Below, one piece after another: positions 1 through 35,353 of a stretch of DNA of 38,989 nucleotides. Positions within the stretch are counted from its first letter, which is position 1. Each line of letters begins with the position of its first letter. The translations under genes were made by a program, and so were the position numbers. This DNA is from a virus. The notes under the pieces were generated by a model. That model had not been told where the DNA came from, made no database searches, and saw only the letters and a program-made list of their open reading frames with translations. The DNA lies in the IMG/VR virus record IMGVR_UViG_3300048930_000687; one strand, 5' to 3'.

Positions 1-127
1 CGGTCACGCGTGAAAGCGTCACCGCTTGCCTCCGTACCAGGTCGATTGCGTGTTGCCGAGCGCGGCACGTCGCAGTTGCTCGTCGAGGTATTCGAGCGCG
101 CCGAGGTCGCAGCGTGCTGGCGCCATG
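1..127. repeat. Terminal direct repeat, identical to 38863-38989
   Basis: Read directly: cggtcacgcgtgaaagcgtcacc...gctggcgccatg occurs at both window ends. Confidence 0.9.
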
Positions 128-2763: not shown

Positions 2764-2773
2764 GGCGGTTCGG

Positions 2774-9350: not shown

Positions 9351-10371
9351 CGCCAGGCAGCTGCTTACGGCTGAACGGCGACCGACTATCCGGAAGATGG
9401 ACACGCATATGCACGCAGACTTTGCTGAAGTGCTATGCCTGGTGAACCCCGACCATGACATCTCAAGCTCGGACATACTCGACCGCTTCGCAGAGCGACG
9501 TGACCTGGGCGAGGAGTTCGAGGAGGCCGACATTGATCCGGAGTTAGCATTTGGTGTTGCCGGCAACTACGAACTGCCTACTGAGCAGCCCGTGGATGGG
9601 GAGTGCGAAGAGATCGATCAAATTAGTGAGCAACTCGTGCTCCGCCAGAGGCTCCTGGGAAGCGCCTATCCTTTTCGGCTCACGGTAACCGGATCGAGCT
9701 TCCGCCTCGCTCGCAAGCAGAAGCTCCACAAAGTGCACCTACTCTACCTGTTCCTACTGATTGCTTCGGATCTCACTCGCATCAACAACCCCACCTACTC
9801 GCGACGGTTTACTAGCGCATTTGAGCGGCTTGCAGGCGAGATGATGCGACGGCTGCTACCGTCCGGAGCCCAGGTTCACCTCTTTGGCACCGCCGCACAG
9901 AAGGGTGAATTGTTCCACGGTGGTCGCCTCGGTGATCGAATGGAACTCTTGGCTAAGCACTTACGCGGTGTCTCTAAGCTGGATAGGAACCATTCTGGGT
10001 CCTCTGGCGACGCCGGCATTGACATCGTCGGCTGGGTGCCAATGGGCGATGCGGGCGACGGCCTGCTAGTTTTGATGGGCGGTGCAACGTGCTCATACAA
10101 GAACTGGGAGAACAAGGTCTATAGTACGTCTTACGGCAGATTGAAGGAAAAGGTCCAGATTCGCGTCCCTAGCGTGAATGTGACATTCATTCCGTTTTTC
10201 ATGCGTACGTCCTCCGGCGATTGGCATAGGGCCGACGAACTCGGTGAAGCTCTCCTGGTGGACAGGCTCCGTCTCATCAAGGGTTTGGCTAAGGCCGGCG
10301 ACGTAATTGAATCCATCGGCGTAAAGCGGGAGCTCCGCGACATTCTTCAAATAAGAGAGACCACCGTCTAG
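9343..10371 (+). CDS. Hypothetical protein, candidate nuclease partner of the methyltransferase
   Basis: 342 aa; acidic N-terminal region; segment GDAGIDIVGW...GGATCSYK loosely resembles Mrr/PD-(D/E)xK-type catalytic cores; sits immediately upstream of a C5-MTase gene. Confidence 0.5.
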   Translation: MSNARQLLTAERRPTIRKMDTHMHADFAEVLCLVNPDHDISSSDILDRFAERRDLGEEFEEADIDPELAFGVAGNYELPTEQPVDGECEEIDQISEQLVLRQRLLGSAYPFRLTVTGSSFRLARKQKLHKVHLLYLFLLIASDLTRINNPTYSRRFTSAFERLAGEMMRRLLPSGAQVHLFGTAAQKGELFHGGRLGDRMELLAKHLRGVSKLDRNHSGSSGDAGIDIVGWVPMGDAGDGLLVLMGGATCSYKNWENKVYSTSYGRLKEKVQIRVPSVNVTFIPFFMRTSSGDWHRADELGEALLVDRLRLIKGLAKAGDVIESIGVKRELRDILQIRETTV

Positions 10372-10386
10372 AATAGATTGGCGTCC

Positions 10387-11361
10387 ATGACTCAGGTCCT
10401 CAAATCCGCCGTTTCACTCTTCTCGGGGTGCGGCGGGTTCGACTGGGGCGTGAAGAGCGCCGGTGTCGACATCATCTGGGCGAACGACATCGACCCTCAC
10501 GCGGCCGCTGCCTACAAAGCCCTGTTCCCCGAAACCGAGTTCCATCTCGGCGACGTAAGAGACATCGCGACCTTCCCCGAAGCTGACGTTCTCATAGGTT
10601 GCTATCCATGTACGGGCTTCAGTCTCGGCTCACGGCGACGCAACCGCGATGGCGCCGACAGGGACCTCAAAGCGAACGGCGGCAACTATCTGTACGAGGA
10701 ATTCGTCAGGGCCCTATCAGTCGTGCAGCCGGCGGTCTTCTTCATCGAGAACGTCGGTGGCATGACCACTGCGTCTGACGGTTGGTTTTTCGAGAAGCAG
10801 TTGACCGAGTTCAGGCGCCAAGGATACGTCGTCAACCACAAGGTCCTAGACGCGTCAAGTTTCGGAGCAGCACAGACCCGCAAGCGACTCTTCATCGTCG
10901 GCGTCAAGCAAGAACTCGGCACAAGCTTCACTTTCCCCGAACCCACACATGGTCAGGCTGACGACCTGAAGGCACTAGCAAGCCTCCGGTCGGCGCTAAC
11001 AAATGTGAAGACTGATGTTGACACCGAGGTCTTCAACTTCAAGTTTCACGGTCATTACCTGACGAGAAACCGGAAACGCCCATGGGAAAGCCCCAGTTAC
11101 ACCATTGTCGCTAACGCACACCACGTTCCCCTCCACCCGTCCGGTGAACCAATGCGCCGCGTTGGAGTGGATCATTGGGAGCTCCAGGGCGACGTGAACC
11201 GTCGGCTCTCATGGCGCGAATGTGCCGCAATACAAGGCCTTCCCCCACAAGTAGCGCCGTCGGGAACACTGCTCGACAAGTACAGGGTCGTAGGCAACGC
11301 AGTACCTCCCGTTTTCGGGAAGACCTTGATGGAAGAGGCCACAGCACAGTTCGGCAGTTGA
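10387..11361 (+). CDS. DNA (cytosine-5)-methyltransferase
   Basis: C5-MTase motifs: FSGCGG (I), GCYPCTGFS (IV, catalytic Cys), FFIENV (VI), QTRKRLFIVG (VIII), GNAVPP (X); start could be TTG at 10378. Confidence 0.9.
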   Translation: MTQVLKSAVSLFSGCGGFDWGVKSAGVDIIWANDIDPHAAAAYKALFPETEFHLGDVRDIATFPEADVLIGCYPCTGFSLGSRRRNRDGADRDLKANGGNYLYEEFVRALSVVQPAVFFIENVGGMTTASDGWFFEKQLTEFRRQGYVVNHKVLDASSFGAAQTRKRLFIVGVKQELGTSFTFPEPTHGQADDLKALASLRSALTNVKTDVDTEVFNFKFHGHYLTRNRKRPWESPSYTIVANAHHVPLHPSGEPMRRVGVDHWELQGDVNRRLSWRECAAIQGLPPQVAPSGTLLDKYRVVGNAVPPVFGKTLMEEATAQFGS

Positions 11362-11444
11362 AACGGAGCCCTGAGGACGGCAGATTCTCCGACTCTAGAG
11401 GCTGAACCATACGGACGCCAACCATAGTTCACCGGGGAGGAATA

Positions 11445-11546
11445 ATGACCAGCAGAGTATGTATAGACGGTGAGGGCACCAATCGTTTACTTGACGGTCG
11501 GTTGACTCGCGTCACCGTCGGTTTGGTCCCGGACGATGTCCCGTAA
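11445..11546 (+). CDS. Small upstream ORF (33 aa) overlapping the integrase start
   Basis: ATG preceded by GGGGAGGAATA; my translation MTSRVCIDGEGTNRLLDGRLTRVTVGLVPDDVP; stop lies 8 nt inside int. Confidence 0.3.
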   Translation: MTSRVCIDGEGTNRLLDGRLTRVTVGLVPDDVP

Positions 11547-12831
11547 GCGCAATCGTCGCGCGCCGGGCGAGGGCGCCATCTACGAACGCCCCGACCGCGG
11601 CACCTGGGTGGCGGCCATCGTGATCGCCTTCGACGAGCACGGACGCCCAATCAGACGCACGAAGACCACGCGCACGAAGACCGAAGCCATGGCCTGGCTC
11701 ACCGCCCAGCAGGCAGCGCTCAACAGCGGCTTGAAGCTCGGGGAGAACGCGACCCTGCAGGAGGTCGTCGACGAGTGGATGGCCGCCGGCCAAGCCCTGC
11801 GCGGCTGGGGTACCAGCACCGTGACGTCATACCGAGCCACCATCGCGAAGATCCTCCCACGCCTCGGACGCATGCGGGCCCGCGACCTCGACCCAGCCCT
11901 CATCGAGCGAACCCTCCTCGACCTCACCCGCAACGGCGCCTCACCCGCCATGGTGGCTCGCGTCCGCAGCCACCTGGCCATGGCCTTGAGGTACGCACTA
12001 CGCAAGCGCCTAATCGAGCGCGACCCGATGCTTGGCGTGGACGCACCGACCACACCGGCTCCACAGATCCAACGATGGAGCGAGGCGGAGGCCGGCAGGA
12101 TCGTCCGCGAATGCCTCGACCGGGACGACCAGACCGCCAGGTACGTGCTGGTGGCACTCGGCACCGGTCTCCGAACGGAGGAACTGCTGGGTCTCGCCTG
12201 GTCGAGCGTTGACCTCGAGGAGCGCATCCTGCTTGTCGAGCGCGTGGCGATCGAGGTCGCCGGCAGGAAGGAGCTCCGGGCGGGCGGCAAGACCGAAGCC
12301 GCCAACCGCCCGGTGCCGATCGACGAGCTGACAGCCGCAGCCCTGGCGCGGCAGGCCGAGCATGTGGAGCACTTGCGCGGCGCCCGGGCGCACCTGGATG
12401 CCAAGCGGGTCGCCGAGGGCCTCCAGTCGCTCGGCTGGGCTGATCTCGACCTGGTGTTCCCGTCGTCGGTCGGAACGGTCGTGAGCCGCAAGACGCTCCG
12501 GGCCGGGTTCGGCGATCTGCAGGAGCGCACGGGCGTGACGCGCATCAAGCTCTACGCCACGCGATCCACGCACGGGAGTCTGTTGGCCGATGCGGGAGTC
12601 AACCTGCACGCGCTGGCCGAGCGCATGGGGCACGCCGACCGGCGTTACCTGGCCAAGAAGTACCTGCGGGGAAGCACGTCGGCGCACCGCGCAGTCGCCG
12701 AGCAGATAGGGCAGATCCTTGGTAGCACGCTGGTAGCAGGAGCCTCTCCGGAGAGCGTCTCGGAAGGTCACGAACCGGCAGGAGAGGGAGCGCGGAACAC
12801 GCGGGAAGTGCGACGGGAGGCCAGTAATTGA
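11536..12831 (+). CDS. int: Tyrosine-type site-specific integrase
   Basis: 431 aa; N-terminal arm-binding-like region, core with GLRTEELLGLAW, C-terminal HGSLL / MGHADRRYLAKKY consistent with the R-H-R-Y catalytic arrangement; followed by a tRNA 3' fragment. Confidence 0.9.
   Translation: MSRKRNRRAPGEGAIYERPDRGTWVAAIVIAFDEHGRPIRRTKTTRTKTEAMAWLTAQQAALNSGLKLGENATLQEVVDEWMAAGQALRGWGTSTVTSYRATIAKILPRLGRMRARDLDPALIERTLLDLTRNGASPAMVARVRSHLAMALRYALRKRLIERDPMLGVDAPTTPAPQIQRWSEAEAGRIVRECLDRDDQTARYVLVALGTGLRTEELLGLAWSSVDLEERILLVERVAIEVAGRKELRAGGKTEAANRPVPIDELTAAALARQAEHVEHLRGARAHLDAKRVAEGLQSLGWADLDLVFPSSVGTVVSRKTLRAGFGDLQERTGVTRIKLYATRSTHGSLLADAGVNLHALAERMGHADRRYLAKKYLRGSTSAHRAVAEQIGQILGSTLVAGASPESVSEGHEPAGEGARNTREVRREASN
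12721..12744. repeat. Direct repeat copy A (GGTAGCACGCTGGTAGCAGGA), candidate integrase arm-type site
   Basis: 19 of 21 positions identical to copy at 12969-12992; contains GGTAGCA twice 11 bp apart. Confidence 0.4.
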
Positions 12832-12869
12832 CTCGCGGTACGGGCCGGGGCAGGCATGCGCGCGCCCAT

Positions 12870-12913
<44 letters not shown>

Positions 12914-12926
12914 GAAATACCGTGCA

Positions 12927-12962
12927 GGACGGCGTCGATTTGAGACGCCGTCCTTCTACTTC
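12927..12962 (+). terminator. Rho-independent terminator-like hairpin
   Basis: GGACGGCGTC-gatttga-GACGCCGTCC stem-loop followed by TTCTACTTC. Confidence 0.5.
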
Positions 12963-12968
12963 GCCCCT

Positions 12969-12992
12969 GGTAGCAGGGTGGTAGCAGGATGC
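12969..12992. repeat. Direct repeat copy B (GGTAGCAGGGTGGTAGCAGGA), candidate integrase arm-type site
   Basis: Near-identical to copy A; the two copies flank the tRNA-like core. Confidence 0.4.
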
Positions 12993-13100
12993 ACCTAGAA
13001 CGGCTGGGCTCAGACCACCTACGGCGTCAGGATTCGGTAAGCCCCGAGGCGTGTAGAGTAGGTCCACGTGACAAGATTGATGGCAGGAGGGAGAGTGCAG

Positions 13101-13301
13101 ATGTCCAACAAGACCCAGGTCATCACTTCGGGCATGCTTCGCTCGCTAGACACCTTCGGCGCAGGACGCCAAGATCAGAGAATCATTGAAGAGTCCAAGA
13201 CCCTCAGCTCCACCACCCCGCGGGAGCAGATGCGAGACCGCTGGGTAAGAGTCGGCCAGTATTTGGGGAGGAACGCACGGCTCCTTCACGAGCGTGGCTA
13301 A
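13101..13301 (+). CDS. Hypothetical small protein (66 aa)
   Basis: ATG preceded by GGAGGGAG; visibly lower G+C than phage core genes; track ORF starts at GTG 13068. Confidence 0.4.
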   Translation: MSNKTQVITSGMLRSLDTFGAGRQDQRIIEESKTLSSTTPREQMRDRWVRVGQYLGRNARLLHERG

Positions 13302-13827
13302 GAAGCGCAAGGGCGAACGCCAACCGCGACTTAAACTTCAGCCAACTGGCGAGTTAACAACGCCACCTCCCACCGCAGTTGAGGAAGTCCTTGAGGAGCT
13401 TGAGCCTCGGCAGAAGCAGGTTATCCAAGAGTGGATTTCCTATGCCTTCAGCGGCCCGTTGCCACCACCCAACATCGTCTCTGGCTACGACCAGATCATC
13501 ACCAACGGCGCGGATCGCATCATGGAGATGGCAGAACGTGACCAAGAGCATGTTCATGGCCTTGAGAATGCACATTCGGCTCGACTAGACAGGTTCCTCG
13601 ACAGCGACATTCGGCTCGCTCGTAACGCGCAGTTACTGGGCGGCGTTTTGTTCACCCTGATGATCGTTGCGGCTCTATTATTCGCGTTCCTAGACAAGCT
13701 GCCTGTGGCGCTAGGCACCGTTCTTTCGGCGGGACTGGTCCAAGTTGGGACCTGGTTGCTCAATCGGTATTCAAACCGCCAGCCGACTAAACCCGAACAG
13801 GACAAGGCAGAGCCCAAGGGCAAGTAG
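13294..13827 (+). CDS. DUF2335-like membrane protein
   Basis: Motif LPPPNIVSGYDQIITNGADRIMEMAE resembles DUF2335 (from memory); two C-terminal hydrophobic helices; GTG start overlaps previous ORF. Confidence 0.55.
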   Translation: MAKKRKGERQPRLKLQPTGELTTPPPTAVEEVLEELEPRQKQVIQEWISYAFSGPLPPPNIVSGYDQIITNGADRIMEMAERDQEHVHGLENAHSARLDRFLDSDIRLARNAQLLGGVLFTLMIVAALLFAFLDKLPVALGTVLSAGLVQVGTWLLNRYSNRQPTKPEQDKAEPKGK

Positions 13828-13897
13828 CCGCTTCGTTTCAGCGCTCCCGGTCTGTGTACTCACGTCTCGACCTCCGTAGCGGAAGGCGCTCCATCTC

Positions 13898-14185
13898 TCA
13901 TGGCAGCCCGGCAGCCAGTCTCCTGAGCGTCTCGAGGATGGCTATACCGAGTCCTCCACCGAGCAGGCTGACGATGATCCCGACGGCGATGACGGCCGCC
14001 CTAGCGCCCTTCAGTTGTGACTTCGCTGACTCCCATTCCTTGAGCATCCTCACGACCTCCTGATCTCTGAGTTCGAGTTGGCGGAGGCGGGCAGCTAGGC
14101 CAGGGCGGCCGTTGCCGTCCCCCCTGACCATCTCGTCGATCTCGTCCACGTCACGACGCAGGGTCGTGAGCATCACCTGGTCCAT
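13898..14185 (-). CDS. Membrane-anchored coiled-coil protein (lysis cassette accessory)
   Basis: 95 aa; N-terminal coiled-coil-like region and C-terminal TM helix AAVIAVGIIVSLLGGGLGIAIL; GGAGGGGAG before the ATG. Confidence 0.5.
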   Translation of the reverse strand: MDQVMLTTLRRDVDEIDEMVRGDGNGRPGLAARLRQLELRDQEVVRMLKEWESAKSQLKGARAAVIAVGIIVSLLGGGLGIAILETLRRLAAGLP

Positions 14186-14283
14186 CTCCCCTCCTGGGTG
14201 GGGGTGCCCGATAGGTGGGCGGTAGCGTCAGATAGCGTCGCCGGTCGGTTTGTCGACGACCGGCGACAAGTTGTGGGTCCGCG

Positions 14284-14367
14284 TTAGTCGCGGGGTCGGA
14301 TGCGCCCGGCGATGCCCATCAGGAGCACGCCAGCAGCGAAGCCGATCACTAGACTCAGGACGTCCAT
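14284..14367 (-). CDS. Small hydrophobic peptide (27 aa)
   Basis: Internal ATG of track ORF 14284-14484, preceded by GAGGAGG; MDVLSLVIGFAAGVLLMGIAGRIRPRD. Confidence 0.35.
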   Translation of the reverse strand: MDVLSLVIGFAAGVLLMGIAGRIRPRD

Positions 14368-14378
14368 GGAACCTCCTC

Positions 14379-14759
14379 TCAGAACCTGGTGGTGAACCCA
14401 ACGCGTAACCAGTCGCTTACGCCGATGGGCGGGATGATCTCGGGCATGCGCACGTCGAGCCACACGCCGCCCCACGCCTCCCACCAGGCGAGCGTGAGGT
14501 ACCCGGCAACGCTCGCGTTGGGGTCGGGACTGAGTGCGGCGCGGGCCTCAAGGCCGATGAGCACCTCCACGGGTCCGAGCGTGGCGATGGTCGTCTCGAT
14601 GTAGCAGAGGCCCGCCCAGGCCGGAGCTGCTACTTGGCAGGTGAGCGTGCGCGTCGGAGGTGCCACGGGATCTAGGACGGCCCCGGGCTCGTCACCTGCT
14701 TGGGCGGCTGCGGACCCTAGCAGCATCGCTGCGAGGACCCCGATCAGGATGCGGCGCAC
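14379..14759 (-). CDS. Secreted protein with signal peptide (possible outer-membrane or spanin-like lysis accessory)
   Basis: N-terminal MRRILIGVLAAMLLGSAAAQA signal-peptide-like sequence; C-terminal aromatic residue (..TTRF). Confidence 0.55.
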   Translation of the reverse strand: MRRILIGVLAAMLLGSAAAQAGDEPGAVLDPVAPPTRTLTCQVAAPAWAGLCYIETTIATLGPVEVLIGLEARAALSPDPNASVAGYLTLAWWEAWGGVWLDVRMPEIIPPIGVSDWLRVGFTTRF

Positions 14760-15122
14760 TCACCCCTCCGAGGGCGCCGCCCCCGACTTTGGGAGCACCT
14801 TCGCCCCCTGATCGATCAGAGTCGCACCGAACCCGGCTGACACGCCGAACGCCAGCCACTCGACGAGGCTCGACCCGAGACCCTCATACCCACCAACGCC
14901 GAGCGCCACAGCGAGGCCAGCGCCAACGCCGATGCTGGCGAAGATGACGGCGACACCGTCGAGCTGCTTGAGGATGTTCGCGCGCAAGAACTTCACGGTG
15001 GCCCACACGACCGCGGCGAGAGCACCGGTGCTAAGCACCCAGGCGGCGGGGTCGCGCAGGTCTTCGGACAAGCCGATGACGTTGGCCAGAAGCGCAAGCA
15101 AGAGGGGGATGAGCTTGGACAC
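14760..15122 (-). CDS. Holin-like multi-pass membrane protein
   Basis: 120 aa with three to four hydrophobic helices; GTG start preceded by GGAGGT; next to an endolysin-like gene. Confidence 0.5.
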   Translation of the reverse strand: MSKLIPLLLALLANVIGLSEDLRDPAAWVLSTGALAAVVWATVKFLRANILKQLDGVAVIFASIGVGAGLAVALGVGGYEGLGSSLVEWLAFGVSAGFGATLIDQGAKVLPKSGAAPSEG

Positions 15123-15139
15123 GGTTGGTTACCTCCATG

Positions 15140-15270
15140 GGAAAGGCCCGCACGTGGCGGGCCGTGTTGCGTGTTTGGCGATTCAGCGGAATAAGACGGG
15201 AATAAGACGAACGGCACGTCTTATTCGCCCCTCGGCGGGAGGCGTTGAGGCTCGTCGCCGAGGGGCGCTG
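15140..15270 (-). promoter_or_regulatory. Cluster of hairpins and AATAAGACG repeats between holin and endolysin genes
   Basis: GGCCCGC-acgtg-GCGGGCC hairpin; GGAATAAGACG twice direct plus once inverted; GCCCCTCGGCG ... CGCCGAGGGGC 11-bp stem. Confidence 0.4.
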
Positions 15271-15445
15271 CGCACTCGAATGCGATGACGCTCTGTGCGG
15301 CGGGCCAAGGCCGCCGAGTGGACCACCTCCTCTCCTGGACACGTCGTAGACGACACGAGCGAACCGCCGAGGAATCCTCGGCAGTTGGTGTCAACGCGCG
15401 CGAGGGATGCGCCGCATGAGCCTGCGTCTCAACCAGCGCAGGGCA

Positions 15446-15925
15446 CTAGGGCTCACGAAGACGCGCCACGAGAGTCCAGCCGCGACTCCCGTACGGTGTC
15501 AGGCTCAAGCAGCCGGGCAGGTTGATGCTGTCAGGCCGATAGCGAGGATCCACGCTCTCCACGACCCAGTTGCGATCGAGGAGGATGCCGACGTGACCAA
15601 CCGGTTCGCTGGCTAGGTGGTTGAAGACGAGGTCGCCGCCGGCCCGGAGCAGTCCCGGCACCGCGAAGCCGAGCTGCTTCGCGCTGGCCTCGAGGTCGCT
15701 CGCCCATGGGTCTGCGCGCGCCTCGGCCAGTCGCTGCTGGGGTGTGCCACCTCTGCGGGTCGTGCCGGCCACGAGAAACTTCGTGTAGAACTCATGGCTG
15801 GGCACCTTCAGGGCGTGCTCGGCCACCACCCGGACGAACGCCAGGCAGAGTCCCGGTCGAGTCGGAACGCCGGGGATCTTCGCGGCGAGGGCGAGCTTGG
15901 CGCTCGCGACCAGCAATTGGTTCAA
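15446..15925 (-). CDS. Putative endolysin / cell-wall hydrolase (CHAP or NlpC/P60-like cysteine peptidase)
   Basis: 159 aa; Cys (GLCLAFVR) and His (GDLVFNH...GHVGILLD) arrangement resembles CHAP/NlpC-P60 folds; TTG start preceded by GGAGGT. Confidence 0.55.
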   Translation of the reverse strand: MNQLLVASAKLALAAKIPGVPTRPGLCLAFVRVVAEHALKVPSHEFYTKFLVAGTTRRGGTPQQRLAEARADPWASDLEASAKQLGFAVPGLLRAGGDLVFNHLASEPVGHVGILLDRNWVVESVDPRYRPDSINLPGCLSLTPYGSRGWTLVARLREP

Positions 15926-15937
15926 GGGCGACCTCCA

Positions 15938-15966
15938 ATGGAAAAGCCCCGCCGTGGGGCGGGGCG
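15938..15966 (-). terminator. GC hairpin with T-tract on minus strand, immediately upstream of the endolysin RBS
   Basis: GCCCCGCC-gtgg-GGCGGGGC followed (minus-strand sense) by TTTTCC and then ATTGGAGGT. Confidence 0.4.
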
Positions 15967-16004
15967 TCAGACGACTGTCAGACCGCAGGGCTTAACCTGC
16001 TGAT

Positions 16005-16487
16005 ATGAACAAACTGTGGGGAGCCTTATTGATTGCGTTATCTCTGGGGGTTGGGTTTGCTCAGAAGTACGGCGTGTGGACCTACAATGAGACCGTAGAT
16101 CTCATCACCGATGAGAAGCGCTCTCTTGTCTTCGCAGGTGCTAGTGAGTACCCCGAGTATGCGAGAGATGCCGCCTTGTCCATTGGGTGCGTTGCTGGGG
16201 ATTGGGTGGTTGTCTTCATGGCGGACCGTTACATTGGTTCGGCCGAACGCGTCGAGGCGGTCTATAGGGTTGACGCCCGCGAACCCGTATCGACATCGTG
16301 GATTGTGCTCAACAGCGGTGAGGCGATCGTCCTTGAACCGACTCGCGTTCCAGCGCTACTGGCGGAGTTAGCTGTGGCGAATCGCTTCGTGATTCGTATT
16401 TCACCCACATACACCATCCCTCTGACGTACGTGATTCCCACGAGCGGCGCTCAGGCGGCTCTGGGGGCGTTAACGGACTGTAACTAG
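16005..16487 (+). CDS. Secreted protein of unknown function (moron candidate)
   Basis: 160 aa; N-terminal signal peptide MNKLWGALLIALSLGVGFAQ; opposite orientation to flanking late and lysis genes; visibly lower G+C. Confidence 0.6.
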   Translation: MNKLWGALLIALSLGVGFAQKYGVWTYNETVDLITDEKRSLVFAGASEYPEYARDAALSIGCVAGDWVVVFMADRYIGSAERVEAVYRVDAREPVSTSWIVLNSGEAIVLEPTRVPALLAELAVANRFVIRISPTYTIPLTYVIPTSGAQAALGALTDCN

Positions 16488-16583
16488 GGCGGGCCCAACC
16501 AGGCGCCGCGAAACCCTAGAGGCTGGTGCCGTCCAGGTTCAGCCAGCTAGTGCCGTCGTTGATGATGACGCGTCCGCTGGCGT

Positions 16584-17099
16584 TCAGGTGGTGAAGATGA
16601 TGTCTGGGGTGCCCTGGACGATGTTGCCGATGTTGCCAGTCGGGCGGCCGCTGCCGGTACCGTTGAGGCCGTTCACGAACGTGATGGCGGCGTTGAATAC
16701 CAGGCCGGTCAGGTTACTGTTCCGGTTCATGGTGCGGGAGGCGCCTGCGTCGTCGACGCATGTCACGGCATAGGTGGTGCTTGCGGAGAGCGTCACGGGC
16801 GTGACGGCCCCGTCGGCCCAGACGTCCTTGGTGGCGCCGACGACTGTCGTTGCGAGTAGGGTGCCGTCGCTGACGCGCCACAGGTTGATTCGCTCGTCGG
16901 CGTTGGCGCTATCAAGGTTGACGCGCAGGCCAACCACGGTGATTGGGCTGGCGCCGACCGCGAACACCCACCCGACGTGATTGGCCAGGCCGAGGTTGGT
17001 GTTCGCCGCGAAGGTCGTGATGCCGAACTCGGGGGGAGTGGGTGGTGTGCCCGCCTTGCTGCTCAGCCCGTAGCGCGTGAGGAGGTTGAGGGCGCTCAT
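16584..17099 (-). CDS. Tail-associated protein (putative receptor-binding or fibre tip)
   Basis: Internal ATG of track ORF 16584-17162 overlapping upstream stop (ATGA); position at the distal end of the tail module. Confidence 0.45.
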   Translation of the reverse strand: MSALNLLTRYGLSSKAGTPPTPPEFGITTFAANTNLGLANHVGWVFAVGASPITVVGLRVNLDSANADERINLWRVSDGTLLATTVVGATKDVWADGAVTPVTLSASTTYAVTCVDDAGASRTMNRNSNLTGLVFNAAITFVNGLNGTGSGRPTGNIGNIVQGTPDIIFTT

Positions 17100-17965
17100 G
17101 CGAGTCCGCCGGAGAGCAGCCAGTTGTTGGTGGCGAGCTTGGTGAGGGTGGCCGTGATCCACTGTCCGGTGAGGTCCTCGTCACCCGGCGTAGTGCCGTT
17201 GATGGTCACGCCCGCATCCCCTGCGACCGTGACCAGGCCAGCATCCAATTGCGCGAGGGCAATCACGGTGCCGACCGGGAACGCCGCGCTGCTGTTGGCT
17301 GGCACTGTGAGCGTGATGGCGCTCCCGTTCGCCAGGGTGACGAGCTTGCCCGCGTCCCCTAGCACGAGCGTGTAGGTGGTGCCGGTCTGCGCGTTGATCG
17401 TGACAGGTGTGGCCGCCTCGAGCTTGGCATTGAGTGCCGACTGCAGGTCGGTCTGGTCTGAGAGCGTGCCCGTGATGCCGCCCCAGGCTCCTCCACCCGC
17501 CCCTGCGCCATTGACGGCCAGGACGAGCACCGCGCTCGTGGCACTGATGGCGATGAGGACGGGCTTCTCGACGGTTCCGGGGGTCGTATCGAGCGTGCCG
17601 TCGTCCTGCAAGTAGTAGAGATCACCGCCGGTCAACCCGGAGAGGGTGCTGACGACACCTGCGGTCTGGAACGCGAAGTCGTCACCGTCAACGAGGCTGA
17701 CGACGCCAACAGCCTCGGCGTGCGCGTCGGTATCGGCCGACGCCTGGACGTAGTCGCTCCCATCGAAGCGCACGACATCGCCCACGGACAGCCCGTGGCT
17801 GGCTTGGGTGACGCCGACGGTGATGCCAGCGCCGAGGAACGTCCTCAACTGCCCGAGTGTCGCCTGCCGGTCGCGCGTTCCGGCCGCCTCGCTCATGTCG
17901 GCCATCAGCACCGTATCGGCATCAGCCAGGCTGCTGGCCAGCGGCCTGTCAGTCCATCTGCCCAT
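17096..17965 (-). CDS. Tail fibre-like protein (Gly/Thr/Ala-rich)
   Basis: Internal ATG with GGAGGTG RBS and TGATG coupling; low-complexity Gly-rich beta-like sequence typical of fibres. Confidence 0.5.
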   Translation of the reverse strand: MGRWTDRPLASSLADADTVLMADMSEAAGTRDRQATLGQLRTFLGAGITVGVTQASHGLSVGDVVRFDGSDYVQASADTDAHAEAVGVVSLVDGDDFAFQTAGVVSTLSGLTGGDLYYLQDDGTLDTTPGTVEKPVLIAISATSAVLVLAVNGAGAGGGAWGGITGTLSDQTDLQSALNAKLEAATPVTINAQTGTTYTLVLGDAGKLVTLANGSAITLTVPANSSAAFPVGTVIALAQLDAGLVTVAGDAGVTINGTTPGDEDLTGQWITATLTKLATNNWLLSGGLA

Positions 17966-20286
17966 CAGGACACCTCCACCATCTCGCCCGAATCGAGCTG
18001 CATGAAATTGCCGCTGTCGAGCAGCAGCCAATCGGTTTCCGTGTCAATCACGACCTCTGTGACCGTCGCCGAAAAGGTCGACGACATGGCCCCTCCGAGT
18101 GGCTGGAAGGCGTCTGTGTAATCGCGGTTCTCCGCAACCGCAACCTCGCCGTTCGGTAGTTGGAGGAGCCGCCCGATGTGGTCGAACTTGACGGGGTAGC
18201 GCTCCCACTCGGACTGCTGCACGTCACGAACCGTGCGCGGGTTGATGTTCCACAAGACGTACGACTGGGCAACGTTCTGCGTCTGCTCTGGCGTGAGCTG
18301 GAAGACGTTGCTCTGAATCGACGCCTGCCGCTCGCCGTACGCCGCGCGAGACGTGACCAGCGCGTCCGTGCCACCGGGGCCGGGGAGAACCTGGTCTGCG
18401 CGACCGAACTCGCTAGTGACGGCCTCGTTGGTCCGCACCCACGCAGTGCCAGTCACGTCCACCTCGAAGAGGTAGGCGAAGTACGTCCTGCCGAAGAGGT
18501 TGTCCGCCCAACTGGGAATCGTGAGCGGCTCAACGTCGATCGCCACGCTCGACACGCGCGTGACGCGCCACGTGGCCGTGACGTTCTGGCTCCGACTGTT
18601 GTGCGTGATGCTGACCTGCTGCGATTGCCCCACAGAGAGGGTGAGGCTCGCTGAGTGCGTGCCCTCAACCCCGAACGACGAGGCCGTCGAACGGTTCCAC
18701 GACCCGAACGCCGTAAGCACCACGTCCACCGTGATCGTGTTCCCCCCGTCCACGAGGACCGTGAACGGGATGGTGCGACCCGACTGGAACTCCTCGGCCG
18801 TATCGTCCGGCAGCACCTCCTCGCTGTCGAGCACGCTGCGTTCAATGCCAAGGCCGCCGATGGAGACGACGAATGCGGGCGCCCTGAGCGCCTGATTCTC
18901 CGTGAACTCCCAACCCTGGCTCGTGACTCGACAGCGGTTGATGACGCCCCTAGGGTCGTCCTCACCGTCAGAGATGGCCAGGAGATCGTCCCACGTGAGG
19001 GTGAGAGTCACGTCCTCCGGCGCGTCCGGGCCAACACGCGGTACCAGCTCAATCGTGCCCAGGCTCGTCTGCCGCACGATGGTGCCTGGGAAGATGCTCA
19101 ACCACTCGTCGAGGATCTCGCGCAGGCTGCGCCTGGCGTCCTGCTCCTGGGGGATGACCACGGCGGCAGTCGTGAGGACGCCCGCGCTCGCATTGTCAAG
19201 GTAGAACTGGCGCTCGTTCCCAACAGCACCAGGCTCAACGAACCGCAGGTCTGGTATCGGCTCGAACTGGAGCCACGGGTAGGCGCTCGACCACGTGTCG
19301 ACCACGTGCTGGATGGCCCGCTGCGCCGTCACGAGGCCGCCTGACTCACCTGGGATGCTCGATGCGGGCAGCATCAACGCCTCCGGAATCGTGCTGGCCA
19401 TGCGCCCCAGGTTCGTCTCGCCATCGACCGTCACGAGCATCTCCTGGTTACGCGTCGGCAACGGGTGGTAGCGCAAGGCCACCAACTCTGGGGTGAGTGC
19501 CTCACTGAACGGCCGCAGCACCCCAGCCGGAACGCCCTCCCCGTAGTCGAACGCCTCACTGATGCCCAACTCCACCGCGATCGCCTGCGTCGCCGCGAAG
19601 ATAGACCCGGCGTCCTCGCGCACGTGCGAGCGAATGCGGTCGGCCACCCCAGCCAACCCGTCAGACACCATCAGCGACGAGATCAGATGCACGCCACTCG
19701 AACTCGTGCCGATGAGCATGTCCGGTTCGCTGCCGACCGTCACGCCCGGCTTGTAGGCCAGCAGTAACTCGCCGGAACTCACCACAGAGTCAACGGCGAC
19801 GCCACCGCTTACGACGGAGTAGCCCCGCACCGCTGGTTGCGAGAACACGAGCGTGACCATCGTGCCGTCCGCTGTAGGCACCACCGCCGCCGTGCCGTTC
19901 CTGACGTTGAACGATGGCGGTGCCGCGCCCTGCCAGACGGCGCCACCGACTGCGCTCGGCACCGGTTGCAAACCGTCGTACGCGGCCCACTCCGTAAGGA
20001 CGGCGTACGCAGTGCAGGCGCCACTCGGTGTCAAGCTCAGCGCCACCCCAGCGGCGCTCACGCGATGGAACCAATAGATCCGCGCCAGATTGCCACCTGC
20101 ACCATTGCCACTCGCCGTGTACCGGAGCGTCCACCCGGCCGGAGTCGGGAGAGTGCGGTTGTCGTTGTCCAGCGCGACCACCAGCAGCAACAACGTGCCC
20201 GATCTCGAGGGCGTCATGCTGACAACCAGCGGCGTTCCGACGTCCACCGCGCCAACCGCAGAAGCGTGAGACAAGAGAACTGCCAT
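17965..20286 (-). CDS. Large tail protein (tail tip / baseplate-like)
   Basis: 773 aa from internal ATG (TGATG coupling with upstream gene); located two genes after the tape measure gene. Confidence 0.6.
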   Translation of the reverse strand: MAVLLSHASAVGAVDVGTPLVVSMTPSRSGTLLLLVVALDNDNRTLPTPAGWTLRYTASGNGAGGNLARIYWFHRVSAAGVALSLTPSGACTAYAVLTEWAAYDGLQPVPSAVGGAVWQGAAPPSFNVRNGTAAVVPTADGTMVTLVFSQPAVRGYSVVSGGVAVDSVVSSGELLLAYKPGVTVGSEPDMLIGTSSSGVHLISSLMVSDGLAGVADRIRSHVREDAGSIFAATQAIAVELGISEAFDYGEGVPAGVLRPFSEALTPELVALRYHPLPTRNQEMLVTVDGETNLGRMASTIPEALMLPASSIPGESGGLVTAQRAIQHVVDTWSSAYPWLQFEPIPDLRFVEPGAVGNERQFYLDNASAGVLTTAAVVIPQEQDARRSLREILDEWLSIFPGTIVRQTSLGTIELVPRVGPDAPEDVTLTLTWDDLLAISDGEDDPRGVINRCRVTSQGWEFTENQALRAPAFVVSIGGLGIERSVLDSEEVLPDDTAEEFQSGRTIPFTVLVDGGNTITVDVVLTAFGSWNRSTASSFGVEGTHSASLTLSVGQSQQVSITHNSRSQNVTATWRVTRVSSVAIDVEPLTIPSWADNLFGRTYFAYLFEVDVTGTAWVRTNEAVTSEFGRADQVLPGPGGTDALVTSRAAYGERQASIQSNVFQLTPEQTQNVAQSYVLWNINPRTVRDVQQSEWERYPVKFDHIGRLLQLPNGEVAVAENRDYTDAFQPLGGAMSSTFSATVTEVVIDTETDWLLLDSGNFMQLDSGEMVEVS

Positions 20287-20750
20287 CAGCTCACCGCCGG
20301 ATCCGTGCTGGTCGTCACCGTGCCACCAGAACGCACATGCAGGCGATGACAACGTGCAAGGACCAGGTCGAGGCGTTGACCCATGGGGCCGTTCGAGGCC
20401 GTCCACACGAGGTTCGTGATGATTCCGACGACGGTCACAGTCTCCTTGTCGTTCGCCTGGCCGCGCTGCAGCACATCGAACACGGCCTGCACGAGTTGGC
20501 CCTGGCCGATAGCGGCGGCGACGATGTGGCCCCCCAACGTCATGAGTGGGCCGCCGTTGAGGACGGCCTTGGTCTCGATGGACGCGAGCTTTGCTTGGGC
20601 AGCTCGCGCGCCTGAGCCAACGATCGAGAGCGCGAACCGCGTGGCACTCTCGTCCGTCAACTGCTGCAAGGCTTGCGAGTCGGCCACGTTCACGGTGAAA
20701 CTCGTGAACGCCGGAGGCGAGACTGGACTGGAGAACGTCACGTCGGCCAT
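20286..20750 (-). CDS. Distal tail protein-like
   Basis: 154 aa directly following the tape measure gene. Confidence 0.45.
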   Translation of the reverse strand: MADVTFSSPVSPPAFTSFTVNVADSQALQQLTDESATRFALSIVGSGARAAQAKLASIETKAVLNGGPLMTLGGHIVAAAIGQGQLVQAVFDVLQRGQANDKETVTVVGIITNLVWTASNGPMGQRLDLVLARCHRLHVRSGGTVTTSTDPAVS

Positions 20751-20751
20751 G

Positions 20752-23616
20752 TCAAGCTCCAGCTCCCGTCAGTCCAAAATTGCGCTCGAGGCGATCCAGC
20801 CTCGGGCCGAGGTGACGCCTGTACAACGCCTCGAACAACGCGTTTGCCTGCCGGGCGAACGCCTGCTCATTCACCGGATCGGAAGGTGCGCCGTGGTACT
20901 GGTTGCTCTGGTTGACCGTGAAGTTCAGGTTTATGGCAGGCACGGATGCTCGAGCACGCTGTTGCTCGTCGCGACGGCGCTTCTCGGCGTCACGATTTCC
21001 ACCAGCGAGCCCACCGAACAACCCGCCTAAGATGGGCAGCAGGCCAGACAGCACCATGCCCCACGGGCCACCAACGAGCGCCCCGAGGATGTTCCCGCCA
21101 GCACCAAACAACCCACTAACGATGCTGCCAGCATCACCCGTTTGGATGCCCTTCACGAGCGTGTCCGTGAACCCAATACCGGCACTGATTACCGTGTCAC
21201 GGAACTTCTCCGCGGCTTCTTCCTGCGCCTTCTGGAACTTCGACCACTCATCTTGAGACATGCCGCCGATGGTTGCCGTTGGCGTAATGCCCAACCCGAC
21301 CGCGGCGGCAACATTCGCGGACGGCTCGATGCTCAACGCCACCGGCACACCCTCACGCTGCAAGCGGTCAAGCTCGGCTTGCAACTCGTCCCGGAGGGCA
21401 CGCGCCACGGCACGCCCCAGCTCGGTACCTGCCGTGTCCAACGTCCGCTGCGCCGCCTGAAGTTCTGCACGCACTTGAGCGATGCTTCGCAGCCCCTCAT
21501 CGGCTACCTGCGCCGCGGGAGTGATGCTCAACCCAACAGGCGCGGCGACAGTCGCAATCGGTTCTGGCGTGGGGATCGTGACCTTCTCCGGCAGCACCGC
21601 GAACGCGTCCGCCGACAACTTCACGCCGTCACGCAACCGCGACAGTTCCTCTTGCAGTCGCGTCACCTCGGCGGAGGCGTCCAAGAAGGCTTCGCTGGTC
21701 ACGTCCGCAGCATCCTTGCGGCGTTGCGCGTCCTCGAGTTCGCGTTGCACGGTGTTGATGCTCCGAAGCGTCCCGGCGTTCACGACCGCCGTCGGGTTGA
21801 TACTCAATGCCTGAGGTGTGGCGACCTGCGCCATGGGACTGATGTTCAGCGAGGTGGTGGACGCGTCCCTTACGCGCTCCATGAGCGACTCGATGGCCTC
21901 CAGCTTCGCCACCGTGTCCTGGTACTGCTCACTGTCAATGCCGAACTCGGACAGCGCCGCCGTGGCCTGCTCGCGGAGTTCTTCGACGCGGGGTTGCAGG
22001 AGCGCGAATACCTCACCGGCGTCCTTGATCCCGAACCGCAACTCGGCTGTGAGCCTTGCCGCCCAGCGCTTCGCGTCGGCGGCTGGATCGGGAATCTCGA
22101 TGCCCTTCATACTCACCGCGAGGTTGTTCGCCGCGGTGGTCGCTGCATTGAGGTCCTTGATGAAGTTCGGAACGTCCGAGGTTGGGCCGGGAATCGGCAT
22201 CGTACTGACCTTCTCAATGCTGCCGTCGACGGCCTTCAACTGCGTTTGTAGCGTCCGCAGTTGCGATTCGGCCTGATCTAACGTCTTGATGTCCACGTTG
22301 GCGGCACCGAAGCTGAACAACTGCCCGAAGAAACCCTTGTTGGCGAACGCGATCACGTCCGCTTCAACGCTCTTGATGAACGCCTGTTGGTTCTGAATCG
22401 TGACTTCGAGGACACGCTTCTGGCGGTTGAGGGCTTCGAGCGCGGCGGTGCGCTCGGCTTCGCTCGTGATGACCAGCGAGTTGCGGTAAGACTCCATGCT
22501 GCCTACGAGGTTGTCGAAAGACTCCTGAGAGGCTTGCCGCGAGCCCGCACCGGCGTCCATCGCACGACTAAGCCCCGCGTAAGCTACGGCGGCGGCTGTC
22601 AAGACCACGCCGATGATCCCGAACGCCGAGTTCAACCCCAGCACGGCGGTCTTCAACAGGGTGAAGCCTTCAACCAGTTTCGGTAGGAGCGTCAGGAGCG
22701 TGCCGAATCCCACAAGGATAGGCCCGGTCGCGGCCAGGGCGATGCCTACGCCGACCAGGATGTTCTGCGTGCCCTCATCGAGGTTGATGAACCACTCCGT
22801 AGCCTTCTGGGTGGCACTCACGAGCTTGTCGAAGATCGGCAGGAGGCGCTGCCCGACGATGTCGGCAACCTGGCTGAAGCTGTCCTTGAGGCGGTTGACG
22901 CGACCCGCGACCGTGTCGGACTGTGCGGCCATCACGCCGTAGAACTTGCCGCCTTCGCTCGTCATGTTCCGGAACGCCTGCTCTACGGCGGGGAACCCGA
23001 CCTTACCGGCCGACACGAGTTCTTGCACTTCGCCCTCGGTCTTGCCGAGAACGCGGCCGAGTTCCGTGTAGATCGGGATGCCACGCGAGGCGAGACGCTG
23101 AAGGTCGAGCGTCGCCACGCGCCCCGTCAACTGCATGCGGCCGTATGCCTCGGTCAAGTCCTCGATCGGCGTCTGCACACCAGCGGCGACATCGCCAAGC
23201 ATGCTGAGGGTCGGCACGAGGTCTTCCGCTTCCGTGCCGAACGCGGCAAGGATGCGCGTACCCTCAGTGAGCGATTCCCACGAGAATGGCGCGTTAGCAC
23301 TGAACTCGTACAGCTCATCAAAGGCGGCTTGGGCGCGGGTCGTGTCGCCGATCAGGACGTTCAAGCTGGCGCTGAACGTCTCTAGTTGCATCGCGCTGCG
23401 TATGCCAGCGACACCGATGGCTGTCAGGGGCGCAGTCAGGGCCACAGTGAGGCGCGTACCGACGCTCTGCAGGTTCTTGCCGATGCCACCGAGCTTGTCG
23501 GCCATGTTGGCAACGGCGGTGGTTGTCGCCTGTTCGGCTTGAGCGAGGCCGGTCTTGAGTTGTGCCTGGTCGAGCTTGACGTGTAGGACTGCTGCGCCGA
23601 GACTGGCGTCTGCCAT
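20752..23616 (-). CDS. Tail tape measure protein
   Basis: 954 aa, Ala/Gly-rich, helical with internal degenerate repeats; preceded by the chaperone G/GT pair; GGAGGTG RBS. Confidence 0.85.
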   Translation of the reverse strand: MADASLGAAVLHVKLDQAQLKTGLAQAEQATTTAVANMADKLGGIGKNLQSVGTRLTVALTAPLTAIGVAGIRSAMQLETFSASLNVLIGDTTRAQAAFDELYEFSANAPFSWESLTEGTRILAAFGTEAEDLVPTLSMLGDVAAGVQTPIEDLTEAYGRMQLTGRVATLDLQRLASRGIPIYTELGRVLGKTEGEVQELVSAGKVGFPAVEQAFRNMTSEGGKFYGVMAAQSDTVAGRVNRLKDSFSQVADIVGQRLLPIFDKLVSATQKATEWFINLDEGTQNILVGVGIALAATGPILVGFGTLLTLLPKLVEGFTLLKTAVLGLNSAFGIIGVVLTAAAVAYAGLSRAMDAGAGSRQASQESFDNLVGSMESYRNSLVITSEAERTAALEALNRQKRVLEVTIQNQQAFIKSVEADVIAFANKGFFGQLFSFGAANVDIKTLDQAESQLRTLQTQLKAVDGSIEKVSTMPIPGPTSDVPNFIKDLNAATTAANNLAVSMKGIEIPDPAADAKRWAARLTAELRFGIKDAGEVFALLQPRVEELREQATAALSEFGIDSEQYQDTVAKLEAIESLMERVRDASTTSLNISPMAQVATPQALSINPTAVVNAGTLRSINTVQRELEDAQRRKDAADVTSEAFLDASAEVTRLQEELSRLRDGVKLSADAFAVLPEKVTIPTPEPIATVAAPVGLSITPAAQVADEGLRSIAQVRAELQAAQRTLDTAGTELGRAVARALRDELQAELDRLQREGVPVALSIEPSANVAAAVGLGITPTATIGGMSQDEWSKFQKAQEEAAEKFRDTVISAGIGFTDTLVKGIQTGDAGSIVSGLFGAGGNILGALVGGPWGMVLSGLLPILGGLFGGLAGGNRDAEKRRRDEQQRARASVPAINLNFTVNQSNQYHGAPSDPVNEQAFARQANALFEALYRRHLGPRLDRLERNFGLTGAGA

Positions 23617-34478: not shown

Positions 34479-34501
34479 GATCGCTCCTCTCTTGTTGTGG
34501 T

Positions 34502-34541
34502 GTGACCCGCCCACGGACGTTGCGTGTGGGCGGCGTCACGG
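34502..34541. promoter_or_regulatory. Imperfect palindrome upstream of the late/packaging operon
   Basis: GTGACCCGCCCAC ... GTGGGCGGCGTCAC arms separated by about 11 bp; shares the GTGAC half-site with the iteron region. Confidence 0.4.
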
Positions 34542-34645
34542 CGGTCCGCCTAGCGGGGTGGGGGTTGTGTTTGGGTGCGGGCTGCGAGGAGTCGCGCCTC
34601 GCCCGTCCCGGCTGATGTGGCCGGGCGCACCACTCGGTGCAAGCC

Positions 34646-34682
34646 CGCAAAGGAAACCCCGCCGTGGGGGGACGGCGGGGCT
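34646..34682 (-). terminator. Rho-independent terminator between the early-right operon and the late operon
   Basis: Minus-strand sense: CCCCGCCGT-cccccc-ACGGCGGGG followed by TTTCCTTTG. Confidence 0.55.
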
Positions 34683-34732
34683 CAGAGTCAAATCTACCGG
34701 GTACAAGATAGCACGTCTTGACAATCCCACCC

Positions 34733-35353
34733 CTACTTGGGAGGTTCGATGCCAGCGCGATCGGCGATCGCGAAGACTTCGGTCGGGCGCATGGGGTCCT
34801 GAGAGTCGCGGAGCGCGTCGGCCAACCGCTCCCGGTCTTCCTCGGGGGTGAGTAGGCGCACGTCGGCGAGGCCGGCGAGGGCCGCCAGGAAGTCGGCAAC
34901 GATTGGCGTGATGAGGGCGCGCGGGTCGTGGTTGCGCCTGAGCGTCGGCGTGCCGTGCCGGTTCGTGTCGAGGAGGAACGGCTGTCGGGCACTGCCGTGG
35001 TGCCAGGCGTTCGTCCACTCGACCAGTTCGGTCGTCGTGAGCTGCGCGTGGAGCATGCGGTAGTCGTCCTCGGTGAGGCGCGCGACGAGGATGTGGCCGT
35101 TGCTCGGCCAGTCGTTGGGTTCGATGCGGCCGATGATGCGACCGACGTCGTTGATGGCCTCGAGCTTGGGCGTGGGCGATGGCAGGCCGGAGGCCGTGAC
35201 GTAGCCGCGGGTGCGACCTTGGCCGGTGGGGTCGTGCACGTACCAGTCGGTCACGATCGGCCAGCCGTCGACCAGGGCACGGCGTAGCGGGAGCCAGAGC
35301 GCGTTTGCGGCGGCCCTGTGCAGTTGCGTGAGGGTGTTCACGTTGGCCTCCAC
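34733..35353 (-). CDS. Hypothetical protein (206 aa)
   Basis: ORF-track ORF, GTG start, last gene of the early-right operon. Confidence 0.45.
   Translation of the reverse strand: MEANVNTLTQLHRAAANALWLPLRRALVDGWPIVTDWYVHDPTGQGRTRGYVTASGLPSPTPKLEAINDVGRIIGRIEPNDWPSNGHILVARLTEDDYRMLHAQLTTTELVEWTNAWHHGSARQPFLLDTNRHGTPTLRRNHDPRALITPIVADFLAALAGLADVRLLTPEEDRERLADALRDSQDPMRPTEVFAIADRAGIEPPK

Follow-up and report, generated by a model that had tools for sequence, protein, structure and literature searches.

Candidate terminator hairpins joined to ribosome-binding sites before the lysin and holin-like genes of uncultured phages

In phage lambda, the PR′ promoter, the tR′ terminator and Q antitermination are located upstream of the lysis genes S-R-Rz. 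Intrinsic terminators and attenuators inside operons set relative expression within polycistronic units. At the level of translation, lambda S carries the sdi stem-loop and a dual-start motif, which set the holin/antiholin ratio (cf. review PMC9636201). Here we analyzed the virus record IMGVR_UViG_3300048930_000687, a stretch of ~39 kb that is called the window as a whole and in which positions count from its first letter, focusing on two GC-rich hairpin modules (A and B) directly upstream of its lysin and holin-like genes and on the 320-bp gap between these genes.

The window covers nearly all of a temperate phage genome and has every lytic gene on the minus strand. By analogy, the arrangement before its lysis genes would in kind be an intrinsic terminator or attenuator, with lambda tR′/Q and lambda S sdi as the nearest functional analogues. 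As in the lambda PR′-tR′-Q system, a candidate terminator stands straight before the lysis genes and read-through would be needed, and the late operon opens, behind a RusA/nin-like region, with a constitutive-looking promoter closely followed by a terminator. As with other intra-operon terminators and attenuators, a GC stem-loop and a U tract are intergenic, co-oriented with the genes and have no promoter downstream. The window differs from these in that the tail is fused to the Shine-Dalgarno (SD) sequence, with 7–9 nt from stem to GGAGG, and in the short U tract of module B, while relatives differ in having tandem arrays of up to three units. The hairpin control that we propose for these lysis genes would be of an ordinary kind, here in an uncultured phage clade.

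Hairpin modules before the two lysis genes

Module A consists of the hairpin GCCCCGCC-ccac-GGCGGGGC (15965–15946, minus strand) with eight G-C pairs, a 4-nt loop and an energy of −19.3 kcal/mol. It is preceded by ...ctgac and directly followed by a U-rich tail with an SD, TTTTCCATTGGAGGT (15945–15931), from which the 5 nt cgccc lead to the TTG start of the lysin gene at 15925. Module B consists of the hairpin GGCCCGC-cacgt-GCGGGCC (15163–15145, minus strand) with seven G-C pairs, a 5-nt loop and an energy of −15.6 kcal/mol, preceded by ...caacac and followed by a short U tail with an SD, TTTCCCATGGAGGT (15144–15131), and then by the 8 nt aaccaacc before the GTG start of the holin-like gene at 15122. 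An earlier note on this DNA had described a hairpin, a tail containing the ribosome-binding site and a non-ATG start before both lysis genes; all were found at those places on the minus strand, and both stems, which are entirely G-C, folded robustly. The tail of A (UUUUCCAUU) has six U in nine positions and was flagged together with its stem by a terminator scan, and that of B (UUUCCCAUG) has three contiguous U and fell below the scan threshold. Both modules have two features expected of intrinsic terminators: a stable GC-rich stem-loop and an intergenic position co-oriented with the genes.

The note had also regarded the two modules as copies of one motif. When its literal 15-mer was searched with mismatches, three matches were found against 1.6 expected, which was not significant, and A and B share only the linker CCAT beyond hairpin, T-run and SD. 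Their likeness thus reduces to a terminator tail and an SD. We defined a composite motif in which a GC hairpin with 6 bp or more is followed by TTT (within 5 nt), GGAGG (within 22 nt) and a start codon. Exactly two sites were detected in the window, both at lysis genes, against a shuffle mean of 0.02, and none of 100 dinucleotide shuffles reached two sites.

On the minus strand, only four sites with a GC hairpin and TTT were found (34683, 29352, 15965 and 15163), all intergenic and co-oriented with genes. The stem CCCCGCC/GGCGGGG is common to three of them: module A, 34683–34654 and 29352–29332. The last of these belongs to a candidate terminator internal to the late operon, GCCCCGCC-taccc-GGCGGGGTTTTCTTTT (29352–29324, minus strand), with the same stem type as A. 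A sigma-70-like promoter scan of the minus strand at 10000–22000 detected no promoter, and neither scan nor inspection found a promoter-like element between the hairpins and their genes.

At the head of the late operon, 5′ of the small terminase gene, we found a putative late promoter with the extended −10 TGcTATCTT (34713–34705, minus strand), followed after ~20 nt by a terminator hairpin with a T-run, GAGCCCCGCCGT...ACGGCGGGGTTTCCTTTG (34683–34648, minus strand). The extended −10 (TGcTATAGT and TGcTATCGT) and the terminator hairpin are conserved in the relatives L174 and L175, where the unit is also located 3′ of the same 206-aa gene and 5′ of the small terminase gene, suggesting promoter activity at 34713–34705. 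A possible counterpart of the sigma-dependent, promoter-proximal pause element of Q-type systems is a −10-like TAGATT that follows the −10 of the window at a distance of 8 nt, but the corresponding TACCAA of L174 and TATCAC of L175 lack the key T6. The unit at 34713–34648 comes after RusA and two small proteins without assigned family, and appears to provide the late promoter with a nearby terminator that characterizes Q-type antitermination. Lambdoid phages have Q-PR′-tR′ at the corresponding position. No antiterminator protein for the late operon was identified; the 206-aa protein (34733–35353) was considered as a Q-like candidate. In the ~170-nt leader that follows the terminator (34480–34648), inspection suggests several hairpins enclosed by a GCGGGC/GCCCGC helix, which in L175 seems to carry compensatory changes (GCGGGU/ACCCGC).

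We propose, with a probability of about 0.5, that A and B are Rho-independent terminator or attenuator hairpins and that only polymerases which read through them transcribe the lysis genes. Late transcription would start at the extended −10 promoter at ~34713–34705, itself followed by the terminator at 34683–34648, and would cover ~20 kb of head and tail genes before it came to the distal lysin and holin-like genes, where the polymerase would have to pass hairpin A and then hairpin B. Before reaching A, late transcripts would also have to cross a divergent gene at 16005–16487 antisense. The hairpins would serve as attenuators or safety locks that hold the lethal lysis genes silent or low, and these genes would be turned on when the late complex becomes terminator-resistant by processive antitermination, or a small leak may be enough. 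Read-through appears to be the only route to both genes because they have no recognizable promoter of their own and because tandem hairpin arrays in relatives leave no space for one. From the sequence we infer termination in vivo, regulated read-through and the position of the late promoter, and control of lysis timing is a further step of the same kind. Of the controls put forward in the earlier note, antitermination, together with read-through, is favored as the best explanation by the terminator anatomy, its conservation, the lack of a promoter-like element between hairpins and genes and the promoter-terminator unit at the operon head.

Upstream regions of related lysis genes

We gathered 25 distinct loci through the lysin family and found three architectures 5′ of the lysin: a hairpin type in 11 loci (the window, L001, L002, L010, L014, L026, L029, L030, L032, L034 and L035), a promoter type in 10 and an overlap type in 4. 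Module A is conserved in the 11 hairpin-type loci, whose lysins are 48–86% identical and whose flanks have diverged. The GC hairpin ends 7–15 nt before GGAGG, usually with the U-rich tail next to it; the U tract is present in 9 of the 11 loci, and the tail-SD sequence TTTTCCTTTGGAGGT is nearly identical in L001, L002, L026 and L029. Loops vary, and the stem of L035 is unrelated. The 11 sequences were folded one by one, in place of RNAalifold on a MAFFT alignment, because the alignment misregistered the arms and the near-invariant stems gave no measurable covariation. L001, L010, L026, L029 and L032 carry two or three hairpin-T-run units in tandem, the last being the lysin-proximal hairpin; ~10 nt separate each U-rich tail from the following stem and leave no space for a promoter. 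The terminator scan flagged both units of L029, where no promoter was found. Hairpins, U tails and their fusion to the SD are thus present, non-random and conserved.

For module B, the stem of L029 is identical to that of the window with a different loop, and L013 and L014 have GGCCC-agct-GGGCC TTTCACATGGAGGA before a gene unrelated to the window's holin-like gene. The earlier note had held that absence of the motif from relatives would speak against it; instead, A was found in 11 loci and B in L029 and L013/L014. At the holin-position gene, a GC hairpin ends 3–11 nt before the SD in all nine relatives folded. The stems there are unrelated in sequence, including GGCCCGC, GGCCC, CCCGGC, GGTTGGCGC and a 15-bp stem in L010.

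As with lambda S sdi, module B would place an RNA stem-loop just 5′ of the holin start, where it could affect initiation, but the window has no dual start and its hairpin excludes the SD. A dual-start holin was considered for the window and rejected, the ATG inside CCATGG being out of frame with the GTG start. In L013 (~930–960), an in-frame ATG-GAG-GAC-AAA-ATG opens the holin-position gene straight after the module-B hairpin, at the place equivalent to the lambda motif, and this ATG pair may be a dual-start (holin/antiholin-like) motif that the window lacks.

The promoter-type loci (L009/L021/L022, L011, L017–L020, L023, L024, L027 and L028) show, unlike the window, a conserved −10 just upstream of the lysin leader (TAGAAT, TAGACT or TAAACT, often with TGn before it), for example in L027, whose lysin is 77% identical. 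Their leaders contain an outer helix of 8–9 bp, GGCCCUCCG:CGGAGGGC, that fully sequesters the lysin SD in the predicted fold and is invariant in nine sequences though the interior has been swapped for a longer insert. In L009, L021 and L022, neither ATG nor GTG nor TTG was found in the lysin frame from the preceding stop up to the conserved N-terminus (~2985–3000 in L009), and ATA occupies the place of the relatives' TTG start. A non-canonical lysin start is possible in these three.

Several of these comparisons weigh against termination as the conserved function. L032 has hairpin A without an adjacent U tract, and in the four overlap-type loci the lysin start overlaps the stop of the upstream gene and there is no hairpin. 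At the holin-position gene many relatives lack the U tract (L002, L010 and L034; weak in L032), which argues that it is the hairpin and not termination that is conserved there. A control used nine related loci with 39 upstream regions in total. Hairpins whose end fell within ~10 nt of an SD were common in other long intergenic gaps, and those of the lysis genes were only somewhat stronger (mean energy ~−18.5 versus ~−12.5 kcal/mol for other genes). The motif that the earlier note suggested seeking upstream of other genes is restricted to the lysis genes as a composite within the window, but not as a hairpin before an SD among relatives. Finally, the consensus scan that found no promoter in the window also misses the putative promoters of the promoter-type relatives, so its negative result is weak evidence.

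Because of the unrelated stems, the missing U tracts and the frequency of hairpins near SDs elsewhere, a conserved post-transcriptional role is a serious rival, which we regard as possible although clearly less probable than termination. The hairpin would then be an mRNA 5′ stabilizer, a processing boundary or an insulator of the ribosome-binding site, with termination incidental. This is what the holin-position hairpins of the nine relatives would suggest, and in the 10 promoter-type relatives the lysin leader hairpin is near the 5′ end predicted from the conserved −10. The U tract retained by module A in 9 of 11 loci and the terminator-like tandem hairpin-T-run arrays argue for termination instead, and comparable hairpins also precede non-lysis genes.

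The gap between the lysin and holin-like genes

The stabilizer explanation draws further on the gap, which folded much better than shuffled sequences (z = −3.65) and contains an orphan anti-16S element, AGGAGAGGAGGTGGTCCAC (15336–15318, minus strand), with a 15-nt complement to the 3′ end of 16S rRNA. This complement (15333–15319) is uninterrupted when G·U pairs are allowed and is the longest in the window, all other runs being 11 nt or less. No start codon lies close enough to be used, the next one being 18 nt from GGAGG. A reading frame after the orphan SD was considered and rejected, there being no start at 4–12 nt and the downstream frame being Arg-rich junk. The core GGTG(A/G)TCCA occurs once each in L013, L014, L015, L029, L030 and L034, in every case between the lysin and the holin-position gene. 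Stabilizing Shine-Dalgarno (STAB-SD) elements and the block that ribosomes pose to RNase J1 are documented for Bacillus thuringiensis cry3A and for ribosome-protected hbs mRNA (PMC4113751, PMC5737220). The element at 15333–15319 has one defining property of a STAB-SD, a 16S complement in untranslated RNA without a start codon, and would likewise not direct initiation; it differs in lying inside a polycistronic phage transcript, in its much greater length (15 nt) and in belonging to a Deinococcota-type phage. The hairpin might act with it as a STAB-SD-like block to 5′–3′ exonuclease.

Part of the 320-bp gap is coding. A micro open reading frame (micro-ORF; GTG...TGA, 15456–15391, minus strand) encodes MSPSALRWLRRRLMRRIPRAR, 21 aa with eight Arg and no acidic residue; it overlaps the lysin stop, its GTG falling inside the last lysin codons, and the first 66 nt of the gap are coding. 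The micro-ORF is conserved in nine relatives (L010, L013, L014, L015, L026, L029, L030, L032 and L034) as peptides of 20–37 aa with ...WLQRRL(S/M)RRIPR.... We consider it to be protein-coding because, between L013 and L014, 11 of 16 aligned C-terminal codons differ with the amino acids unchanged. In L013, L014, L015 and L030, the micro-ORF stop codon is located inside the anti-16S element.

Three hairpins were also predicted in the gap. The first, CUGCCGAGGA-uu-CCUCGGCGG (15384–15364, minus strand), is present in both the minimum free energy (MFE) and centroid structures and partly common to L032. The second, CGGCGG-ccttggc-CCGCCG (15316–15298, minus strand), comes straight after the anti-16S element, and its stem is identical in L029 and L032 with a different loop. 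The third is the hairpin with an 11-bp stem (15266–15227, minus strand; −26.8 kcal/mol), whose loop contains CCUCC. Two of its pairs are compensatory relative to L032 and a third differs by a G-C to G-U change, and in this two-sequence comparison 100% of cells were paired against 41–63% in slid registers. It is absent from L029. A scan of viral contigs for the conserved gap hairpin TCGGCGGCNNNGGCCCGCCGCACA gave no matches.

The remaining feature is a cluster of AATAAGACG repeats (15226–15188), a 10-bp inverted repeat with one extra direct copy, reading GAATAAGACG-tgccgtt-CGTCTTATTC-c-CGTCTTATTC-c on the minus strand. Exact copies of AATAAGACG are at 15190–15198 (+), 15201–15209 (+) and 15217–15225 (−), so the three repeats reported in the earlier note are confirmed, as is its 11-bp-stem hairpin. 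Their membership in a conserved control unit was not borne out. We consider the cluster to be an insertion and not part of the core because it is absent from L029 and L032, which have the same holin module. In L034 (~3050–3130), three copies of GAATAAGACAAG and an inverted copy, TGTCTTATT, followed by GATTCA, are located in a 560-nt lysin-holin gap; these belong to the same family with the opposite orientation relative to the lysis genes, which points to a DNA-level or self-contained element and not to control of the lysis transcript. Judged from these comparisons, the cluster is a variable insert outside the terminator mechanism. Reading the repeats as attP was rejected, the cluster being inside the contiguous lysis cassette and 2.4 kb from int. 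In L047, an unrelated viral contig of 57% GC, four tandem (G)AATAAGAC(G)G copies are found in an intergenic region beside terminase genes (2895–2945), probably by coincidence.

It is also conceivable, though unlikely, that the gap forms an undescribed post-transcriptional unit setting the amount of holin per lysin and the timing of lysis, made up of the micro-peptide, the anti-16S element as a 'ribosome trap', the CCUCC-loop hairpin and the hairpin-SD module. In such a unit, the micro-peptide may be translationally coupled to the lysin stop and the CCUCC loop may be displayed as an anti-SD. The peptide may bind RNA or act in antitermination through an arginine-rich motif, like the N-terminus of lambda N; alternatively, it may represent a new kind of lysis effector in Deinococcota phages that breaks the envelope in a disruptin-like way. 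The phiKT gp28 'disruptin' is a cationic amphipathic lysis peptide of 56 aa (bioRxiv 10.1101/515445). The micro-ORF product is similarly small, strongly cationic and encoded within the lysis cassette, but it is shorter (21–37 aa) and has no sequence similarity to disruptin. An Arg-rich RNA-binding or leader-peptide role would be as likely as a disruptin-like role.

Rather improbable is that the hairpins are ordinary terminators carried along with mosaic modules such as the tail operon or morons and kept at recombination junctions, with no lysis-specific role. The three interchangeable architectures before closely related lysins (hairpin, promoter with an SD-sequestering hairpin, and overlap) would fit such an origin, as would the common hairpins in other gaps and the conservation of the 3′ arm, tail and SD of module B in L013/L014 before an unrelated holin-position gene. 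However, the last hairpin remains fused to the lysin SD even with different upstream neighbors (a co-directional gene, a divergent moron or a tail gene), and two or three stacked units directly before lethal genes are hard to call neutral.

Pairing of the U/C-rich tail with the SD (UUUCC:GGAGG, 3-nt loop) as a fourU-like thermosensor or translational brake is quite improbable. The MFE structures of the 45-nt module A and 91-nt module B contexts contain UUCC:GGAG or CCC:GGA pairs, and most relatives would allow a helix between the pyrimidine tail and the SD. Translational occlusion does seem to be used at the lysin gene within the family, because ten relatives bury its SD completely in the invariant 8–9-bp helix, a true anti-SD helix at the same gene. 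As in fourU and other SD-occluding thermometers and leader hairpins, the U-rich tract of the window can pair with GGAGG, but the predicted helix is marginal and without covariation support. It adds only ~2.6 kcal/mol (−21.9 versus −19.3 kcal/mol) and is missing from the MFE structures of L001, L002 and L010 in a longer context, and a U-rich terminator tail beside a purine-rich SD can be expected to pair by composition anyway.

Least probable of all is an independent small-RNA gene, as the earlier note had suggested, or a separate holin unit with the AATAAGACG repeats as operator or promoter: the gap is highly structured, its 11-bp hairpin covaries with L032, and the AATAAGAC repeats recur in L034 in another number and orientation as in binding-site arrays, but Rfam 15 gave no match in the whole window at gathering score and only chance matches (E > 1) at 14900–16100 by E-value, scan and inspection found no promoter-like element in the gap on either strand, its first 66 nt are coding, and the cluster is missing from two relatives with the same holin module. 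Collection scans for GAATAAGAC repeats (18 matches) and for the AATAAGAC inverted repeat (>120) returned nearly all AT-rich unrelated contigs and were set aside as uninformative.

Lysis proteins, genome context and implications

The lysin gene (15446–15925, minus strand) starts with the TTG at 15925 and encodes 159 aa, apparently a divergent NlpC/P60-like peptidase. Its family comprises 62 homologs, compact and all unannotated, and C27, H111 and E123 are invariant in 58 family sequences. The AlphaFold2 model had a mean predicted local distance difference test score of 96.9, and its best PDB matches by Foldseek were MepS/Spr, CwlO and a T. thermophilus NlpC/P60 protein, with weak scores (probability up to 1.0, E only 5e-3, template modeling score 0.44–0.51). 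Sequence and model together are consistent with the Cys-His-polar triad and papain-like fold of NlpC/P60. The lysin profile gave weak matches to CHAP/CwlO/RipA, the match to Pfam PF00877 scored 13.8 bits, below the cutoff of 23, and no family was above threshold in Pfam, PHROG or NCBIfam. The label 'endolysin' seems reasonable because of the invariant C27/H111/E123 and the fold likeness to NlpC/P60 endopeptidases.

The holin-like gene (14760–15122, minus strand) starts with the GTG at 15122, adjoins the lysin gene and encodes 120 aa with three to four hydrophobic segments (~1–22, 25–51, 50–79 and 87–103). It thus has the properties by which holins are recognized, a small size and at least one transmembrane domain beside an endolysin, and no holin or other family was matched in Pfam, PHROG or NCBIfam. 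We call it holin-like on the basis of its position and hydrophobic segments. L017 and L029 have a holin-like homolog in the same position, and a search of viral contigs for loci with the holin-like protein found none. The two labels of the earlier note are therefore carried by fold, invariant residues, position and hydrophobic segments, and not by a family match above threshold.

Elsewhere in the window, RepB-primase and RecD-helicase genes are located at 19–4564 (minus strand), and a helix-turn-helix gene, a C5 methylase and an integrase are encoded on the plus strand. The order on the minus strand is RusA, a GcrA-like zinc protein, the 206-aa protein of no assigned family, and then terminase, head, tail and lysis genes. 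A divergent signal-peptide moron (16005–16487, plus strand), which matched phrog_1848 (E 9e-6), separates the lysin from the tail genes, and L002 has an analogous divergent gene. Several relatives have prepilin-type (N_methyl) morons adjoining the lysis cassette where the window has this moron (L017 2392–2796, L021 2479–2850, L029 1830–2195 and L035 7231–7626). Just past the stop of the 192-aa tail gene (16520–16583, minus strand), the −1 frame encodes ...ASGRVIINDGTSWLNLDGTSL*, which resembles the C-terminal end of the lysin-abutting gene in L033 (...VFDGTNWLNVDGTAL); this stretch was probably left behind at a mosaic junction, or it is made by frameshifting.

In blastn and tblastn searches against 50,697 phage records, neither the region nor the lysin had a match, and the terminase was at most 31% identical to any record, so there is no cultured relative from which annotation could be taken. 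A search of genome contigs with the lysin family returned only L002's own contig, which is binned as 'Pigmentiphaga'. The host is probably a member of Deinococcota, because one homolog of the 206-aa protein carries the name of a Trueperaceae metagenome-assembled genome and relatives have prepilin-type morons.

The by-products of this analysis may outweigh the hairpins themselves: an NlpC/P60-type lysin family of ~60 members, an Arg-rich micro-ORF and an orphan super-Shine-Dalgarno element, none of which has an assignment in Pfam, PHROG, NCBIfam or Rfam. If the terminator explanation is true, it would provide compact terminator-ribosome-binding-site parts for high-GC hosts and a simple, testable way into the control of late genes in phages that lack a cultured representative. 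A probable Deinococcota phage clade would then shield its lysogens from its own lysis genes by terminators stacked against ribosome sites, and lysis would depend on terminator-resistant late transcription, the lambda Q/tR′ logic at the far end of the operon.

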